A stretch of DNA of 64,000 nucleotides from Parcubacteria bacterium C7867-005. Lineage in GTDB: Bacteria; Patescibacteriota; Minisyncoccia; Phycocordibacterales; Zambryskibacteraceae. The translations under genes and the position numbers were made by a program. Below the pieces are notes generated by a model, which ran no database searches, had not been told where the DNA came from, and was given only the letters and a program-made list of their open reading frames with translations. The stretch spans positions 10,987-74,986 of the forward strand of contig LFCO01000001.1 of assembly GCA_001189165.1 (NCBI GenBank). Direction: 5' to 3'. Each line of letters opens with the position of its first letter. Within the stretch, counting starts at the first letter, position 1. Below are positions 9,314 through 58,064 of the stretch, in pieces.

Positions 9314-9407
9314 AATTAGAAGAGTGTTTGTGGGTATTTAACTTTTTTTCAAATATAAACAATGAACCCGCCTCCGACAGAGACGGGTGTCTTGTCGGGG
9401 CGGGCGG

Positions 9408-9731
9408 CTATTCATGCTTGAAGCAGATGGGGATATCGTCGTCGCGGAGGGCTCGGGCGATCGCGAGTCTTGCCCTGGGTACATTTGAGGCAAACACTCG
9501 CAGTTCTTGTACGGAGCGAGACTGACGAACCTTGAGGATTATGCCTCCTGCAAAGTCGCCAATCTTGACCTTCCGCATACCACCGGCGACGCCCTTGCCC
9601 TGCTGGATCAGACCCGGAGAGACTCCATCGACCTCAGCCAGTTTGCAGATGATGTCGGTGACATCAGCTGCAAGATCAGTGAAGGTGGTGTGAGTGCCAC
9701 GGATCTTCTTTCCATCTCGATGGTGTGGCAT
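9408..9731 (-). CDS. GC-rich ORF with weak resemblance to ribosomal protein bL27 (MPHHRDGKK..., ...GGIILKVRQ..., ...NVPRARLAIA...IPICF); alternative weak resemblance to the MazF/PemK C-terminal half
   Basis: 107 aa; ~60% GC versus ~38% for the flanks; similarity judged by eye only. Confidence 0.3.
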   Translation of the reverse strand: MPHHRDGKKIRGTHTTFTDLAADVTDIICKLAEVDGVSPGLIQQGKGVAGGMRKVKIGDFAGGIILKVRQSRSVQELRVFASNVPRARLAIARALRDDDIPICFKHE

Positions 9732-42571: not shown

Positions 42572-43459
42572 TTAGAGGGCTATCCTAACATATTTCTCTA
42601 TTTCTTTGGATGCCCCAGATTCAAACCATTTTATGGACTTGTTCCTTTTAAACCAAGTCATTTGGCGTTTTGAATACTGTTTTATTTCTGTATAGAGTCT
42701 CTCTCTCATCTCCTGTCTGTCGATCTTATCCTGGAGAAACATAGCGATATATTTATATTCTAGTCCTAGGCTCTGCATACGCTTCCAAGTAAGTCCACGA
42801 TCATGCAACCTCTTACCCTCCTTAATCATCGGTTCCATGCGTTTGAGCAATCGTCTGTATATTTTTTCTTCAAGGTCTTTTTGCTCGGGTCTGATACCGA
42901 TGAATACGGTCTCCCACTGTGTCAACCTGGCAGGTTGACACAGTGGGACATGACCCAAGGCAGATACTATTTCAAGTGCTCGGATTAGGCGAACCTTGTT
43001 TTTAGAATCTATAGATTTCGCTCGAACAGGATCTTTCTTTTGAAGCATCATATACAACTCGTGAGCATCTTTTCTCTCCAGTCTTTCCCTCAGCACTTTA
43101 TTTGGTGGGACTTCAGGTAGATTAGTTTCTCCTATGAGGATGTCTATGTAAAACCCCGTACCACCGACGATAATCGGTGTTTTATTCCTTTCGAGGATAT
43201 CTATCAATATTTTTTCTCCGAGCACCTTGTAGTCAGAAGCAGAGAATGATTTCTTTGGATCTGCCACATCAAGCATGTGGTGAGGTATGTTGAGCATCTC
43301 TTTCTTGGTGATTTTTCCTGCACCTATGTTCAAACCTTTATAGACCTGTCTAGAATCAGCAGAAATAATCTCGCCATTAAATTTCTTGGCGAGGGAAACC
43401 GCAAGGGAACTTTTGCCCGATGCTGTTGGGCCGACTATGATTAAAACCTTGGGCTTCAT
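42572..43459 (-). CDS. miaA: tRNA dimethylallyltransferase
   Basis: VLIIVGPTASGKSSLAVSLA P-loop, ISADSRQVYKGLNIGAGK. Confidence 0.9.
   Translation of the reverse strand: MKPKVLIIVGPTASGKSSLAVSLAKKFNGEIISADSRQVYKGLNIGAGKITKKEMLNIPHHMLDVADPKKSFSASDYKVLGEKILIDILERNKTPIIVGGTGFYIDILIGETNLPEVPPNKVLRERLERKDAHELYMMLQKKDPVRAKSIDSKNKVRLIRALEIVSALGHVPLCQPARLTQWETVFIGIRPEQKDLEEKIYRRLLKRMEPMIKEGKRLHDRGLTWKRMQSLGLEYKYIAMFLQDKIDRQEMRERLYTEIKQYSKRQMTWFKRNKSIKWFESGASKEIEKYVRIAL
42911..42947. repeat. 37-bp perfect palindrome tcccactgtgtcaacctg-g-caggttgacacagtggga inside miaA (copy 2, encodes ...PLCQPARLTQWE...)
   Basis: Exact inverted arms; 23-bp core identical to the 21474-21508 copy except for the complementary centre base (the same element in the opposite orientation). 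Confidence 0.75.
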
Positions 43460-53313: not shown

Positions 53314-53613
53314 CACGGCCGCGGCGCCGATCACTGTCATTCGACAGAAGGCATCAGCCCTTCGGTTGAACTGACGGCAACCTCTCGTGCTTCTCTGTAC
53401 GAGTAGGACTTCGTTCGAGTACGACTCGGGAGTGCCGACGGGGTGGATCGTTTGAATCCATCGCCGTCGGCACGACCCGACCCCCCGCGCACCCTAACCC
53501 GGTGCGTTTAACTTTTATAAAATTTCCCTGTGCGTGTATAATAAGATTCTGGTTGGGGATGCAGTTTGCAAACTCTAACCAGATGTTCTCACATCCTTCC
53601 ACGGAGTCCTGCC

Positions 53614-53736
53614 ATGAAAGACCGGCACTCGAGCACCAGACACCCGCGTATGGGAGTCACTCTCGAGACCAAGGGCCAGATGCGAAGCAAGACCGGCGGA
53701 TCCATCCGCTACATGTGGCCAACCCCAGGAGGCTGA
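53614..53736 (+). CDS. candidate GC-rich mini-ORF (40 aa) in the second promoter-terminator unit; may instead be an sRNA
   Basis: Extended -10-like gtgTATAAT at ~53540, GGAG 7 nt before ATG, hairpin gagcgactcatgtgagtcgctc + T-rich at 53766-53795. Confidence 0.2.
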   Translation: MKDRHSSTRHPRMGVTLETKGQMRSKTGGSIRYMWPTPGG

Positions 53737-53799
53737 TCCATGGAATACGGTGCGTGAACACCCCCGAGCGACTCATGTGAGTCGCTCTCTTTAATACAG

Positions 53800-53828
53800 T
53801 TGACAAAAATACGTATTGGGTTTATAAT
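53800..53828 (+). promoter_or_regulatory. consensus sigma70-type promoter TTGACA-17-TATAAT driving a ~150-nt GC-rich transcript that ends at hairpin 53979-54000
   Basis: Exact TTGACA (53800-53805), 17-nt spacer, exact TATAAT (53823-53828); downstream hairpin cggaccc-ttcg-gggtcc + tttgtg. Confidence 0.5.
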
Positions 53829-54136
53829 GGTCGTTAGAGAAGTGAACAGTATGGCAGAGAATAGATGGAAGCCGGGGCGCGATCCGTGGTGAGTCGTCGG
53901 GGCCCGGAATCCCCGCCGTTCCACTCGGGTCCGCCTCGGCCCCGTCTGCCCATCCTTCGTTTACTCGTTCCATTTACACGGACCCTTCGGGGTCCTTTGT
54001 GCTATATAAATTTTCAAAACAAACACCCCTTTACAAACCAAATTTTTTATGATAAGAAGATGTAAGAGGAAAGTGGTACCAAACTACTTTCGACTCAATC
54101 CGCCCTTTCAGTCTTCACGTTTCTCTAGGAGATCCC

Positions 54137-55009
54137 ATGCATCGCGCTCGGCTGTATCTCTTGCTTGCGGTGGGGATATTCCTCACCGCCTGCAGGAATG
54201 AGACCAACGTCTTCGGCCCCGGCAACGGTCCGAACGGACCGAATAACGGACCAGACGGTGGACGATCGGCGTTCGCATCGGCAGGCTTCAGGCCCGCTGA
54301 CACGACCATCGTGGTGAGCACCCGCTACCACGCTCTGGGCCAGATCTTCGTCGAGCAGGGTCGGTCACCGAACCTGCTCATCCGTACGAGGCAGTGCGTC
54401 CAGTACGTGGGCTCACCGCTCATCACCTGGACCGGCCAGTCTGGCTGGTACAACGTGGACGTCACCCTCCAGGGTGTGGCTACGTGCAGGGATTCGATCG
54501 TGTTCAAGTTCGCGCACGATACGACCATCACCACGTTCATCCGTGCGACGGTCGTCTCCGCTCCTGGTGGCCCCGGCATCCCCACGATGACGGTGACACC
54601 TCCGGGCGGTAGTGGTCCGGTCGGTACTGGTTCGCAGTCGAATTGCATCATCACTGGTGTCACTGACACGCGGTGCTGGGCATACTCGACGGATCCTTCA
54701 CGGATCGCTGTGGTTCAGAAGGATACAACCTTCGCAACCGCGACGAACCCGTGGACGGCCGGATCACATCTGTCCGGTGAGATCCGATTCATGTTCGCAG
54801 GTTCGGCGAATATCTGCAGGTACTGGGTCGTTGACCCACGAGTGGCACAGTGCCATCAGTGGAATGCGACGGTCCCGAGCCTGCAGTCGTCCGACATGAT
54901 GTCGGCGAGCTACGGACTTCGTGATGCGAAGCTGTCCGAAGAGGGCGGCCGTCTTTACGAGGTCGTCCTCGATCGGATGAAGCAGAACGGGGAGAAAATC
55001 CACCGGTAG
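54137..55009 (+). CDS. GC-rich lipoprotein (lipobox LTAC), hypothetical
   Basis: MHRARLYLLLAVGIFLTAC signal and lipobox; RBS TAGGAGATCCCATG; GC-rich. Confidence 0.5.
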   Translation: MHRARLYLLLAVGIFLTACRNETNVFGPGNGPNGPNNGPDGGRSAFASAGFRPADTTIVVSTRYHALGQIFVEQGRSPNLLIRTRQCVQYVGSPLITWTGQSGWYNVDVTLQGVATCRDSIVFKFAHDTTITTFIRATVVSAPGGPGIPTMTVTPPGGSGPVGTGSQSNCIITGVTDTRCWAYSTDPSRIAVVQKDTTFATATNPWTAGSHLSGEIRFMFAGSANICRYWVVDPRVAQCHQWNATVPSLQSSDMMSASYGLRDAKLSEEGGRLYEVVLDRMKQNGEKIHR

Positions 55010-55096
55010 CAAAAGACCCCAAAGGGGCGCCCAGCGATTAAGTTCGCTGGGCTTCTTATTTATATGAGTCTACAAATCGTTTGCTATACTAGACCC

Positions 55097-56140
55097 ATGA
55101 AAAAAGTAGAGAAACAGGAACAAGTTTTTTACAGAAAATATCGTCCACAGATTTTCAAAGAGGTGATCGGCGAAGATCATATAGTCAAAGTATTGGAGGG
55201 AGCGATCAAGCTTGGTAACATTTCTCATGCATATCTTTTCTCTGGTGCGCGAGGTACAGGTAAAACTTCTGTGGCGAGGATCCTCTCGCGTGAGTTGGGT
55301 ACGAATGCTTCAGATCTATACGAGATGGACGCCGCCTCTAACAGGGGGATAGATGATATCCGCAGTATCCGAGAATCTGTCTCCACACTTCCTTTTGAAT
55401 CCAAGTTCAAAGTTTATATCATCGACGAAGTTCACATGCTCACCAAAGATGCGTGGAATGCATTTTTGAAAACCCTTGAGGAACCACCAGCACACGTTGT
55501 CTTTATACTTGCGACTACAGAGATAGAGAAAGTTCCGGAGACGGTCGTCTCTCGTTGTCAGACATTTGTATTCAGAGCTCCGAATCAAAAAGTGTTGAAA
55601 GAATTTGTAGTTAATATCGCCAAGAAAGAAGGGTTCGTCCTGGCACCAGATGCTGTAGAACTCGTCGCCATACTCGGGGATGGGTCGTTCAGAGATACTC
55701 ATGGGATACTCGAGAAGGTTCTATCTTCGACAACAGATAAAAAGATCACTAGAGAAGAAGTAGAAGCGGTCACCGGTGCACCAAAGTCCAAACTTGTGAA
55801 GGATATCTTGGAGTCGGTGGTACTGCAAGATTTGCCCAAGGGTCTCTCTGCGGTGGGGCAGGCGAGTACATCGAATGCAGATATGAAGCTCTTTACCAAA
55901 CTTATCCTCGAGCGTTTGCGGTTTCTTTTTCTTCTGCGTCTGAAGACAGGTATGGATGAACATATCAAAGAAGAAGTGTCTGAGGATGATTTTGAATTCC
56001 TCACAGACCTCGCAAGTAAAGCTGGTCAGAGTATGACTGGTTCGGTGCTCCTCCGTTTTATTCAAGCATACGAAGATACAGGTCGAACAACTATCCCCGA
56101 ACTTGCCCTCGAGCTCGCACTAACTGATGTCATTAAATAA
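55097..56140 (+). CDS. dnaX: DNA polymerase III subunit gamma/tau (short form)
   Basis: AAA+ clamp-loader motifs LFSGARGTGKTSVARIL, DEVHMLT, SRC motif VSRCQTF; start MKKVEK at 55097. Confidence 0.85.
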   Translation: MKKVEKQEQVFYRKYRPQIFKEVIGEDHIVKVLEGAIKLGNISHAYLFSGARGTGKTSVARILSRELGTNASDLYEMDAASNRGIDDIRSIRESVSTLPFESKFKVYIIDEVHMLTKDAWNAFLKTLEEPPAHVVFILATTEIEKVPETVVSRCQTFVFRAPNQKVLKEFVVNIAKKEGFVLAPDAVELVAILGDGSFRDTHGILEKVLSSTTDKKITREEVEAVTGAPKSKLVKDILESVVLQDLPKGLSAVGQASTSNADMKLFTKLILERLRFLFLLRLKTGMDEHIKEEVSEDDFEFLTDLASKAGQSMTGSVLLRFIQAYEDTGRTTIPELALELALTDVIK

Positions 56141-56155
56141 TTAAAGAAGCCACCT

Positions 56156-56662
56156 CTACGAGGTGGCCTGCTTGGTGGGGGATCCAGTCCACCAAGAACG
56201 GATCTGTTCCACGAACCCGATGAAGTAGCCGATGATACAGAAGATGATCATCACGGCGACGGCCACTGGTCCGAGGATGAAGGACACAGTTTCCATAATC
56301 CAGAAATGGAAGTGCCCTCTGTTCATCTCGAAGTACACTTCTTCGTGGAGACCCTTCTCTCGGATCTCTTTGAAGGAGTAGTTCCGCTTGCTTCCGCCGA
56401 AGAACCCATCATCCCACACGGCCATCATGATCTCGATGTCGTTGAAACGATGTACCTTGCCACCCGGGAGGTGGCAGAGCATGTCATCGGTAAAGCACTT
56501 CAGGATGTCTGTCCAGGAATCGACCTCTCCGCCGTTCACGACGAAGGAGAGGAAGCTCAGGATGTACCATCCGAAGAGCGAGACGCCGAGCCAGCCGAGC
56601 ACGAAGAGGATCTGGAGCCAGAGCGACCAGCTGACGAAGGTGTCGAGCATGTTCGAGAGCAC
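56156..56662 (-). CDS. GC-rich hypothetical membrane protein (3 TM)
   Basis: 168 aa; N-terminal and C-terminal hydrophobic helices. Confidence 0.4.
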   Translation of the reverse strand: MLSNMLDTFVSWSLWLQILFVLGWLGVSLFGWYILSFLSFVVNGGEVDSWTDILKCFTDDMLCHLPGGKVHRFNDIEIMMAVWDDGFFGGSKRNYSFKEIREKGLHEEVYFEMNRGHFHFWIMETVSFILGPVAVAVMIIFCIIGYFIGFVEQIRSWWTGSPTKQATS

Positions 56663-56794
56663 GGGGTCTCCGTTTGTGGAGGGAGGGGGAACTCAAGTCC
56701 TATCTGAAATTACCTTATATATAACAAGTGGTCAATATTAAATAACTTAGTCAAGTTTATTGACTATTCAAGACGGAGGAGTAATATACTCGAC

Positions 56795-57142
56795 TAGGCA
56801 GTACGTTTGGGGTAACTGGTCATACTTGCCGCTAAGAGAGAGGCTGGAGCTAAGCTTAACGAGGGCACTTCCCAGTTAACCCTAGTTGAGCTAACTCGAT
56901 TCCCAGAAGGGGGAAATTCCGGAGAATGCTCCTACGGACCCCGACGCAAGTTAAGGTGGTTGTGAACTGAGGCTTTACCACCGAAGACGACGCGAGCGAT
57001 GTTCTATCGCTCAGGGACAAGTCACCAAAAGCTGGATGACGCCATCGCAAGTGGCAAACATCAATGAGGGGTAGCGCCCTTACCAGCATAGACTAAAAGC
57101 GACCAGACCCACCTGGGGCACACCGAAACATTGGTGTGCCCC
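56795..57142 (+). ncRNA. candidate structured ncRNA (~350 nt), class unknown; partial resemblance to the RNase P RNA P4/P5 region (GGGGAAATTCCGGAGAATGCTCCTACGG vs GGAAAGUCCauGCUCgcACGG)
   Basis: No ORF >77 aa; promoter TTGACT-17-AATATA (56760-56788) overlapped by inverted repeat tagtcaa-gttta-ttgacta; several internal hairpins; strong terminator ggggcacacc-gaaacat-tggtgtgcccc + T-rich (57105-57142). Confidence 0.35.
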
Positions 57143-57229
57143 TTGAACTTTTATATAAGTCCATCTTTTGTTGTTTTTGGAATAATACGTGATTGAATTG
57201 AGGCCAGAATTAAAGTATTCTGGCTACAT

Positions 57230-57300
57230 TGGGGGATCGTCTAATGGTAGGACAGAAGCCTTTGAAGCTTCTAATCTTGGTTCGATTCCAAGTCCCCCAG
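57230..57300 (+). tRNA. tRNA-Gln (anticodon TTG)
   Basis: U1-A72 acceptor TGGGGGA/TCCCCCA typical of bacterial tRNA-Gln, anticodon stem-loop GAAGC-CTTTGAA-GCTTC, T-arm CTTGGTTCGATTCCAAG. Confidence 0.85.
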
Positions 57301-57347
57301 CCAGTTTGAGGTAGGTTCAGAGTTCGAGGAGCATATAAATAACTAAT

Positions 57348-58064
57348 ATGAAAGAGATCCAAGAAGATATAAATAAATTTAAAGAATTTGAATCAAAGGA
57401 AGTTAATGCTGCCATTAAGGAATTAGAAGGCATTACAACTGAATCAAACAGGAAACATTTGCAAAGACTTGTTTATGTTAACTTGGTTAACCGCTTCGAT
57501 GCTCTTGTTGATAATTTGTTGCTTAAGTTTTCAATACTTGACGGCCTATTTAAAGTAAAGGTCTTGCAAGAGACAAAGGGTGAAGAAGTATTTCTCAAGG
57601 ATATTTATGAAATTTTGCTATCTGAAAATCCAAAAAATGCCGTACAACAACGAGTAGAAAATGTAGCTAGAGGTAAATTTTTAAGCCAAAGACACTCTTT
57701 AAAACTAAGAACCCTTTTATTTTTTTGCTTTTCTTGGCCAGAGACTGATCTTGATAGGCCGAGAGTTTTCACTAATAATGGATCAATCTTTGTCGACAAT
57801 AAAAGATTAAAACCTTATCAAATACCAGACACTGTAATTGGGTATGCTGATTGGTTGTATGCTAGACGTAACGCACTTGTGCATGGCGATGGAAAAAAAC
57901 TAGCTTCAAAAGATCTGGGATTTATGCAACAAAAGTTTGGTGCGAAACCCGCCTCTACGATAAGTTTGAAAATATCTTCAATTAAATCTGCTGTTCGGTT
58001 TTATAATGATCTATGCGAAGCTCTTTCAGTGCCCCAAGACTTAGTCCGAGGTGCATTAGAATGA
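57348..58064 (+). CDS. hypothetical protein with HEPN-like Rx4H motif (LYARRNALVHGDG); possible HEPN-family RNase / Abi-like protein
   Basis: 238 aa; AT-rich; all-alpha-like composition; RNxxxH motif near the C-terminus; 48 nt downstream of tRNA-Gln. Confidence 0.4.
   Translation: MKEIQEDINKFKEFESKEVNAAIKELEGITTESNRKHLQRLVYVNLVNRFDALVDNLLLKFSILDGLFKVKVLQETKGEEVFLKDIYEILLSENPKNAVQQRVENVARGKFLSQRHSLKLRTLLFFCFSWPETDLDRPRVFTNNGSIFVDNKRLKPYQIPDTVIGYADWLYARRNALVHGDGKKLASKDLGFMQQKFGAKPASTISLKISSIKSAVRFYNDLCEALSVPQDLVRGALE

Follow-up and report, generated by a model that had tools for sequence, protein, structure and literature searches.

The window analysed here comprises 64,000 nucleotides of Parcubacteria bacterium C7867-005 (contig LFCO01000001.1, positions 10,987 to 74,986, forward strand), a genome known as a 564-kb groundwater bin of 42% GC from Hanford (Nelson and Stegen 2015, PMC4508563). 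Within it we examined a candidate non-coding RNA (ncRNA) gene, whose body of about 355 nt (56790-57145, plus strand; GC 0.54) is non-coding, strongly folded and without an Rfam family. The local gene order begins with dnaX (55064-56140, plus strand) and a 168-aa membrane-protein gene (56156-56662, minus strand), which is transcribed divergently from the candidate; on the other side lies tRNA-Gln(UUG) (57230-57303, plus strand), a conserved anchor of the locus that stands outside the candidate RNA. A 238-aa open reading frame (ORF; 57348-58064, plus strand) follows 3' of the tRNA, with a PnuC-like and a NUDIX gene beyond it. From the start of the 168-aa gene to tRNA-Gln there extends an ORF-free gap of 567 nt (56663-57229); an earlier reading made from the letters alone (the sequence-only reading) had noticed 410 bp of it (56740-57150) as lacking a credible ORF, correctly, the real gap being wider. 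Coding and tRNA genes (the latter numbering 13) make up 91% of the window, so that such a gap is unusual, and it is among the largest and most stably folded gaps of the window. The housekeeping genes of the window have shortened products (dnaX 358 aa, IF-2 557 aa, ValRS 724 aa). The genome paper (PMC4508563) contains no ncRNA details. The sequence of the locus is that of DGYO01000004.1 (GCA_002396705.1), and an independent Logan assembly (SRR2043728) is 100% identical across 1300 nt; since two independent assemblies agree, the candidate sequence is not an assembly artefact.

The stretch does not code for protein. All ORFs that overlap the candidate are short, and the longest, 77 aa on the minus strand and rich in R, L and S, has no Shine-Dalgarno sequence, no Pfam family and no homologue among 5.8 billion proteins. 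GC content by codon position is flat in every frame (0.51/0.54/0.56), compared with 0.55/0.35/0.43 in dnaX, 0.49/0.36/0.82 in the 168-aa gene and 0.48/0.31/0.26 in the 238-aa gene, and none of the alternative genetic codes, with any stop reassigned, opens a convincing frame. A small protein gene was rejected on these grounds: flat codon-position GC, no ribosome-binding site or conserved ORF, no homologue and no alternative-code frame. A pseudogene of the genes that occupy this slot in relatives was also rejected, as tblastn with 290 of their spacer ORFs gave zero similarity to the candidate.

Upstream of the body, scanning identifies a sigma-70-like promoter, TTGACT-16 nt-TAATAT (56760-56787, plus strand; 9/12 match), which ends 7 nt 5' of the structured part and would place a putative plus-strand transcription start at about 56794-56796. 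The same promoter-like site had previously been read as TTGACT-17-AATATA, with a poorer -10 box. It resembles the TTGAC-type promoters found 7-16 nt upstream of tRNA-Tyr, tRNA-Phe, tRNA-Glu and tRNA-Ser in the same genome. The -35 box is overlapped by a 7-nt inverted repeat, TAGTCAA-5 nt-TTGACTA (56748-54/56760-66), which exists as the sequence-only reading had described it; its interpretation as an operator finds less favour, because 7-nt inverted repeats are by our own estimate, made without a computed control, expected by chance in such an AT-rich stretch. The repeat is probably formed by two back-to-back TTGAC -35 boxes of divergent promoters. The divergent promoter of the 168-aa gene, TTGACC-17 nt-TAATTT (56707-56735, minus strand), is conserved in a syntenic relative.

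At the other end of the candidate stands a perfect GC-rich hairpin of 10-12 bp, GGGGCACACC/GGTGTGCCCC (57115-24/57133-42, plus strand; pair probability 0.97), and the 3' end is terminator-like (57115-57152, plus strand), the hairpin being followed by UUGAACUUUU, an imperfect U-tract. A strong intrinsic terminator had been placed at 57105-57142; the hairpin itself is real and perfect (57115-57142), while the word strong overstates a structure whose U-tract is interrupted. Such an interruption means that termination may be leaky, and the candidate lies on the same strand as tRNA-Gln, 85 nt upstream of it; both points would suit a reading in which the segment is a structured 5' precursor, co-transcribed with tRNA-Gln from 56795 through a weak terminator and released by the RNase P cut at the tRNA 5' end, either as a by-product or as a processed RNA. 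We consider this unlikely, as a promoter-like site of its own precedes tRNA-Gln by 8 nt and the corresponding spacers of relatives go down to 51-67 nt, which argues that the segment is unneeded for expression of the tRNA. A perfect 8-bp hairpin, GCCAGAAT/ATTCTGGC (57203-57224), is also present 5 nt 5' of the mature tRNA-Gln end, within the putative tRNA-Gln leader, where it overlaps the promoter-like site of the tRNA.

Between promoter and terminal hairpin, the plus strand folds with a minimum free energy of -131.4 kcal/mol (z = -3.8; z = -3.2 without the terminal hairpin), which, with the GC content given above, agrees with the initial description of the sequence as GC-rich and hairpin-dense. 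The predicted ensemble is well defined, with helix pair probabilities of 0.9-0.99. In the predicted fold (all elements on the plus strand), the two ends are joined by a series of closing helices, whose 5' strands GGGU, CUGGUC, UUGCCGCU, GA and GGC (56810-56844; mean pair probability 0.80-0.99) pair with the 3' strands GCC, UC, AGUGGCAA ... GACCAG and ACCC (57041-57110); the pair probabilities of the closing stem are 0.99 for CUGGUC/GACCAG, 0.89 for UUGCCGCU/AGUGGCAA and 0.93 for GGC/GCC. Enclosed by these helices are a 5' hairpin domain (GAG/CUC, AGCUUAAC/GUUGAGCU and AGGG/CCCU; 56847-56897; pair probability 0.96-0.98), a central multi-branch domain (56901-57017, with hairpins at 56918-38, 56946-93 and 56994-57012), from which a covariance model (R1) was built, and a small hairpin inside the closing stem (57021-57040). 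A further hairpin is inserted among the 3' closing strands (57065-57082), and after it comes a purine-rich unpaired junction of 18 nt (57083-57100). The plus strand as a whole is purine-rich, GC skew and AT skew both being positive.

It is established that the candidate belongs to no described RNA family. Families were searched with cmscan and Rfam 15 (4227 families) at the gathering score, at E <= 10 for 751 nt and for an isolated 366 nt, and at E <= 5 for the window. No family reached the gathering score on the candidate, and at E <= 10, tRNAs apart, nothing appeared but a chance 17-bit match to a snoRNA; the whole 64-kb window at E <= 5 contained no sub-threshold match to RNase P RNA, transfer-messenger RNA (tmRNA), signal recognition particle (SRP) RNA or 6S RNA. 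These were the four families that the sequence-only reading had proposed to check in this way, and the candidate is assigned to none of them; its judgement that tmRNA was unlikely is upheld by both ARAGORN and Rfam. A tmRNA, whether one-piece or permuted, was rejected because ARAGORN finds nothing at thresholds of 100-80% and its calls at 70% are artefacts that borrow the T-arm of tRNA-Gln; the tmRNA T-arm and 5' motifs can be placed on the candidate only with 4-5 substitutions. SRP RNA, bacterial (small or large) or archaeal, was likewise rejected, the helix 8 motif AGGUCCGGAAGGAAGCAGC being unmatched within 5 substitutions and Rfam giving no SRP match. Tandem or interspaced repeats, as expected of a guide-RNA array (CRISPR, TIGR), are absent, merely short two-copy repeats being found, and the repeats D2 and D3, which at first sight suggest that a module of about 100 nt was duplicated internally, are no more than chance would produce (825 of 2000 shuffles).

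Two other kinds of tRNA-associated RNA invite comparison. In Patescibacteria, tRNA genes hidden by group I introns are often missed, and some of the introns are too diverged for RF00028 (PMC13011429). The candidate shares with these genes the phylum, the association of a structured element with a tRNA and a length of a few hundred nt, but unlike them it has no flanking exon halves, is served by a promoter of its own and is not inside a gene; an intron-containing tRNA was rejected, as the intron mode of ARAGORN (default and 90%) yields tRNA-Gln only and there is no Intron_gpI match. GOLLD and ROOL are large structured RNAs of unknown function, several hundred nt longer than the candidate and frequently found in accessory or prophage DNA with a tRNA gene as neighbour. 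Like them, the candidate is large, GC-enriched, structured, non-coding and tRNA-adjacent, and sits in a variable region among accessory genes; unlike them, it has no match to those Rfam families and is a single occurrence with no covariation support.

Because the RNase P RNAs of the candidate phyla radiation (CPR) are often missed (PMC8172020), the likeness to the P4/P5 strand of RNase P RNA suggested by the sequence-only reading was examined in detail. Of 35 complete CPR genomes, 10 had an RNase P RNA undetectable at Rfam thresholds (Lui et al. 2021, PMC8172020), and the diverged CPR RNase P RNAs kept P7-P11 and were still found by RF00010 (PMC8172020). The annotated rnpB of E. coli served as reference, with conserved region (CR) I at 61-73, CR-IV at 328-337, P2 at 12-18/336-342, CR-V/P4 3' at 347-361 and P1 at 1-10/364-373. 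What does better than chance is a single CR-I/P4 5'-like 13-mer, GGGGAAAUUCCGG (56910-56922, plus strand), that matches CR-I (GAGGAAAGUCCGG) at 11 of 13 positions; its equivalent GGGGAAATTCCGG is equalled in 59 of 5000 shuffles (p ~0.012), and three more matches as good occur in the window, all within protein genes. Downstream lies a CR-V-like string, ACCAAAAGCUGGAUGA (57024-57039, plus strand), which is weak, with 4 mismatches to CR-V (ACAGAAnnnGGCUUA).

On these elements one may build an RNase P RNA that is drastically pared down and lacks an S-domain, in which GGGGAAAUUCCGG would be CR-I and the 5' strand of P4, CUGGAU (57032-37) the 3' strand of P4 with the conserved bulged U, and UUGCCGCU...GGC / GCC...AGUGGCAA would be P1, its inner end 3 nt past P4 3' as in E. 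coli. Read by eye, CUGGAU could form 6 bp with AU(U)CCGG (56916-22), one U being bulged out; set against E. coli rnpB, a pair would be regained through the two departures from consensus, G to U in CR-I and C to A in the CR-V-like string. Other resemblances to type A RNase P RNA (RF00010) are the length (about 320-355 nt versus 377 nt), ends closed by long-range helices, and a CR-I-like 13-mer that follows a large 5' hairpin and then a purine-rich stretch; the candidate moreover adjoins a tRNA gene in a phylum whose diverged RNase P RNAs frequently escape Rfam thresholds (PMC8172020), and the 64-kb window holds no other RNase P RNA at E <= 5.

We nevertheless regard a reduced RNase P RNA as very unlikely. 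None of the RNase P models (bacterial A and B, archaeal, type T) matches the isolated 366 nt at E <= 10, although diverged CPR forms are found with RF00010. The P4-like duplex and the CR-V-like string are both at noise level: the best downstream duplex of the CR-I segment reaches -11.5 kcal/mol, weaker than the shuffle mean of -13.3, and chance alone gives 67 pairs of CR-I and CR-V with <=3 mismatches in 2.8 Mb. Only 109 nt, versus 279 nt in E. coli rnpB, separate the putative P4 strands, too short a distance to accommodate an S-domain together with P15 and P18. There is no canonical P2, since a fold with P4 masked gives a GGAGC/GCUCC helix that encloses just the 5' hairpin and CR-I; matches to CR-II and CR-IV require at least 4 substitutions, and the sole CR-IV-like string (57057-66) falls out of order, downstream of the putative P4 3' strand. 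The candidate thus differs from type A RNase P RNA in lacking a covariance-model match, a supported P4 3'/CR-V, a canonical P2, an S-domain and conservation in relatives, and no consistent threading of P2, P4, CR-IV and S-domain could be obtained. An essential RNA should be conserved, yet nothing similar exists in 1.36 Mb of DNA from relatives, and the segment is a lineage-specific insertion; the window is 11% of the genome, so that the actual rnpB probably lies elsewhere.

The distribution of the candidate was assessed in related genomes, in which dnaX followed by tRNA-Gln(UUG) is kept in about 55 of 80 (GTDB). The two genes form a conserved anchor pair across Paceibacteria/Parcubacteria (loci L001-L080). 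The spacer between them can be as short as 51 nt or as long as 2908 nt, and the ORFs and other sequence in it are unrelated between genomes; hypervariable to this degree, it looks like an insertion hot spot 5' of a tRNA. No homologue of the candidate was found in the 80 GTDB dnaX loci (1.24 Mb; nhmmer including --max, and blastn) or in the contigs of the closest dnaX relatives (78-81% identity, drawn from 5.8 billion proteins), and the covariance model R1 of the central domain scores 158 bits on itself and 10 bits on its next match. Three weak nhmmer matches all fall within long ORFs. BLAST searches of phage and plasmid collections gave nothing similar; four 18-19-mers of the candidate, searched by exact matching only, had zero matches in IMG/VR; and the 18-nt junction, again by exact match only, had nine JGI metagenome matches, all confined to the 18-mer, as expected of chance. 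Paralogues are absent from about 85 kb of the same genome. The conserved homologous locus that the sequence-only reading had proposed to use for covariation was therefore not found in the searched sequences, and with neither an Rfam family nor a conserved locus, its wider proposal must be narrowed: a known or conserved class is refuted (RNase P RNA and 6S RNA, two of the classes it had left open, have no match), while a lineage-specific small RNA (sRNA), or something other, survives.

A closer view of this restricted distribution is given by the 168-aa protein, which has one homologue (50% identity, 92% coverage), on a contig (L083) that shares the synteny with dnaX. Across the divergent promoter, CTGAAATTACCTTATATA...GTCAA, L083 matches the window almost letter for letter, and the similarity stops at about 56738-56739. 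As a positive control, nhmmer run in the same way detects the conservation between the window and L083 both in this promoter region (E = 0.009) and in a non-coding gap further upstream (53797-54068; E = 4e-7). As the flank is conserved and the candidate is absent in L083, the candidate and its own promoter are a lineage-specific insertion or replacement, whose boundary the alignment places near 56739. Hallmarks of a mobile element were not seen at the unit, which has no terminal inverted repeats and is flanked by AT-rich TATATAA strings alone. Judged from the sequences compared, it is established that the candidate is unique to one Parcubacteria lineage.

These observations bear on whether the segment is a gene at all, and several of them weigh against it. 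Beyond about 56738, L083 carries an unrelated small ORF and a canonical terminator where the candidate would sit, and a total of 1.36 Mb of related loci, searched with nhmmer, blastn and the covariance model, yielded no homologue; the candidate is known from one sequence. The minus strand folds nearly as well as the plus strand (z = -3.2). In a background of 31 random 356-nt windows from the same genome (mean z -0.62, sd 1.37), in which run the candidate scored z = -3.4, about 2 sd beyond the genome mean, one of the 31 reached z <= -3; the fold is thus more stable than the genome background to a degree that is suggestive, not decisive. The promoter scan finds 1 site per 900 nt, against 0.9 expected from shuffles. 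The terminator scan does not call the 3' hairpin, whose interrupted tail TTGAACTTTT fails the U-tract rule, and this tail is poorer than the terminators of tRNA-Phe and tRNA-Trp in the same genome, which are canonical (A-tract/hairpin/TTTTT). One of these background windows, at 42733-43088 within a 295-aa minus-strand ORF (42572-43459) next to tRNA-Trp and tRNA-Leu, folds at z = -4.65, more stably than the candidate.

The main rival to an orphan ncRNA, somewhat unlikely in our estimation, holds that the segment is accessory DNA without function, left behind by the decay of GC-richer sequence that had entered the hypervariable dnaX-tRNA-Gln slot horizontally; the fold, the promoter-like hexamers and the hairpin would then be fortuitous or relics of a former gene's terminator. 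The absence of the candidate from L083 and from the 1.36 Mb of related DNA is equally expected of such DNA. The slot varies from about 50 to 2900 nt, with unrelated content across some 55 relatives, the adjacent 168-aa gene is alien in composition (GC content at third codon positions, GC3, of 0.82, versus 0.43 in dnaX and 0.26 in the 238-aa gene), no collection searched contained a homologue, the fold z lies just about 2 sd past the genome background, and the promoter count equals the chance expectation. To be set against this are that no former coding frame or protein similarity is detectable, that junk should be rare in a 564-kb genome that is 91% coding, and that the order and spacing of promoter, body and hairpin fit a gene.

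The 238-aa neighbour suggests, by analogy, another function for the segment. Its protein family, of 82 cluster representatives, has an invariant R174-N-x-x-V-H179 motif (Rx4H, HEPN-like), and further invariant residues are D51, D55, H116 and K119; no Pfam or PADLOC family is assigned to it, and the gene is AT-rich (GC3 0.26). Six homologue loci have unrelated contexts that are in part mobile-element- or prophage-like (serine recombinase, Bro-N, LexA/methylase), and the gene may encode a HEPN nuclease or a defence protein that has yet to be characterised. Structured antitoxin RNAs are partners of some HEPN toxins, and the invariant motif and the mobile-element-like contexts would accord with the candidate being an RNA partner (antitoxin or guide) of this protein. 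But tRNA-Gln separates the two, the protein has no PADLOC or Pfam assignment, and the six homologues (47-59% identity) are preceded by 75-630 nt of ordinary AT-rich DNA with no similar RNA. This lack of co-occurrence at the six loci largely refutes a partner RNA, which we hold to be highly improbable.

The explanation that we favour, tentatively and at somewhat less than an even chance, is that the segment is an orphan structured ncRNA gene specific to one lineage. What speaks for it is that the segment is non-coding and unlike the genes of this slot in relatives, that it folds beyond the genome background into well-determined helices, that it has a promoter like those of nearby tRNA genes, a perfect 3' hairpin and a purine-rich plus strand, and that an ORF-free gap of 567 nt is unusual in so densely coding a window; the proposal of the sequence-only reading, a structured ncRNA of about 350 nt with its own promoter and a terminal hairpin, is in this form the best-supported explanation, unproven and shorn of its RNase P lead. 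Transcription, strand, ends and any function are all inferred. The candidate would be an independent transcription unit, started by TTGACT-16-TAATAT near 56795 and ended, perhaps leakily, at the hairpin of 57115-57142. From it would come a compact RNA, about 350 nt in length, with its ends joined by long-range helices around three or four hairpin domains. The unit, together with its promoter, would have been acquired by inserting into, or replacing part of, the hypervariable accessory stretch that separates dnaX from tRNA-Gln. Given its size and its closed multi-domain fold, such an RNA would act in trans as a structured RNA (protein-binding, scaffold or catalytic), and not as a short base-pairing sRNA. 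It resembles other orphan bacterial ncRNAs in being a stand-alone intergenic accessory unit with a sigma-70 promoter and a 3' hairpin, no family and a narrow distribution; it differs from typical base-pairing sRNAs, of 50-250 nt, in its length of about 355 nt and its closed multi-domain fold, and no Hfq-type or seed-type features were identified on it.

A bolder proposal is that the candidate represents a new class of RNAs, large, compact and structured, which accessory DNA of CPR bacteria carries and of which it would be the first example seen. Its relatives would have escaped the searches, given the sparse sampling of the lineage (81% identity to the nearest dnaX) and the restriction of the global DNA searches to exact 18-mers. 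A narrower version would make it a rearranged RNase P-like ribozyme devoid of the S-domain, which would be unprecedented in Bacteria. Taken together, these two versions strike us as distinctly improbable.

Some other features of the window deserve record. The existing annotation places a 133-aa ORF on the plus strand (56306-56707), where it overlaps the 168-aa minus-strand ORF (56156-56662); the latter is probably the real gene and the recorded call a strand mis-annotation, the 168-aa gene being preferred because of its syntenic 50% homologue, its codon periodicity (GC3 0.82), its conserved promoter and its two hydrophobic segments. The distance of its GC3 from that of its neighbours suggests a foreign origin. 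Gene-to-gene GC content swings from 63% in a 290-aa lipoprotein-like ORF (54137-55009) to 33% in the 238-aa ORF, a variation that points to dnaX and tRNA-Gln being surrounded by a mosaic of acquired genes. The lipoprotein-like ORF (63% GC) is preceded by a gap, some 800 nt long, for which no gene is recorded (53341-54136), a 161-nt part of which has a GC content of 0.61, a fold z of -4.3 and no Rfam family, and 270 nt of which (53797-54068) are conserved with L083 (3015-3258; E = 4e-7); the gap may hold a small ORF, an ncRNA or a conserved leader. Another gap, of 193 nt (9314-9506; GC 0.51), lies beside tRNA-Glu and folds on the minus strand with z = -5.0; neither Rfam nor the related loci contain a match to it.

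The practical value of these results is mainly negative, in that the segment is not to be annotated as rnpB, ssrA or ffs. At the same time the candidate provides a concrete target for metatranscriptomics of Hanford samples. The CPR or Patescibacteria have tiny, host-dependent genomes whose ncRNA content is almost unexplored and in which RNase P RNAs and some tRNAs escape standard annotation. A structured RNA of 355 nt kept in a genome of 564 kb would, if true, be a candidate carrier of some RNA function as yet unknown, possibly linked to accessory or defence DNA.

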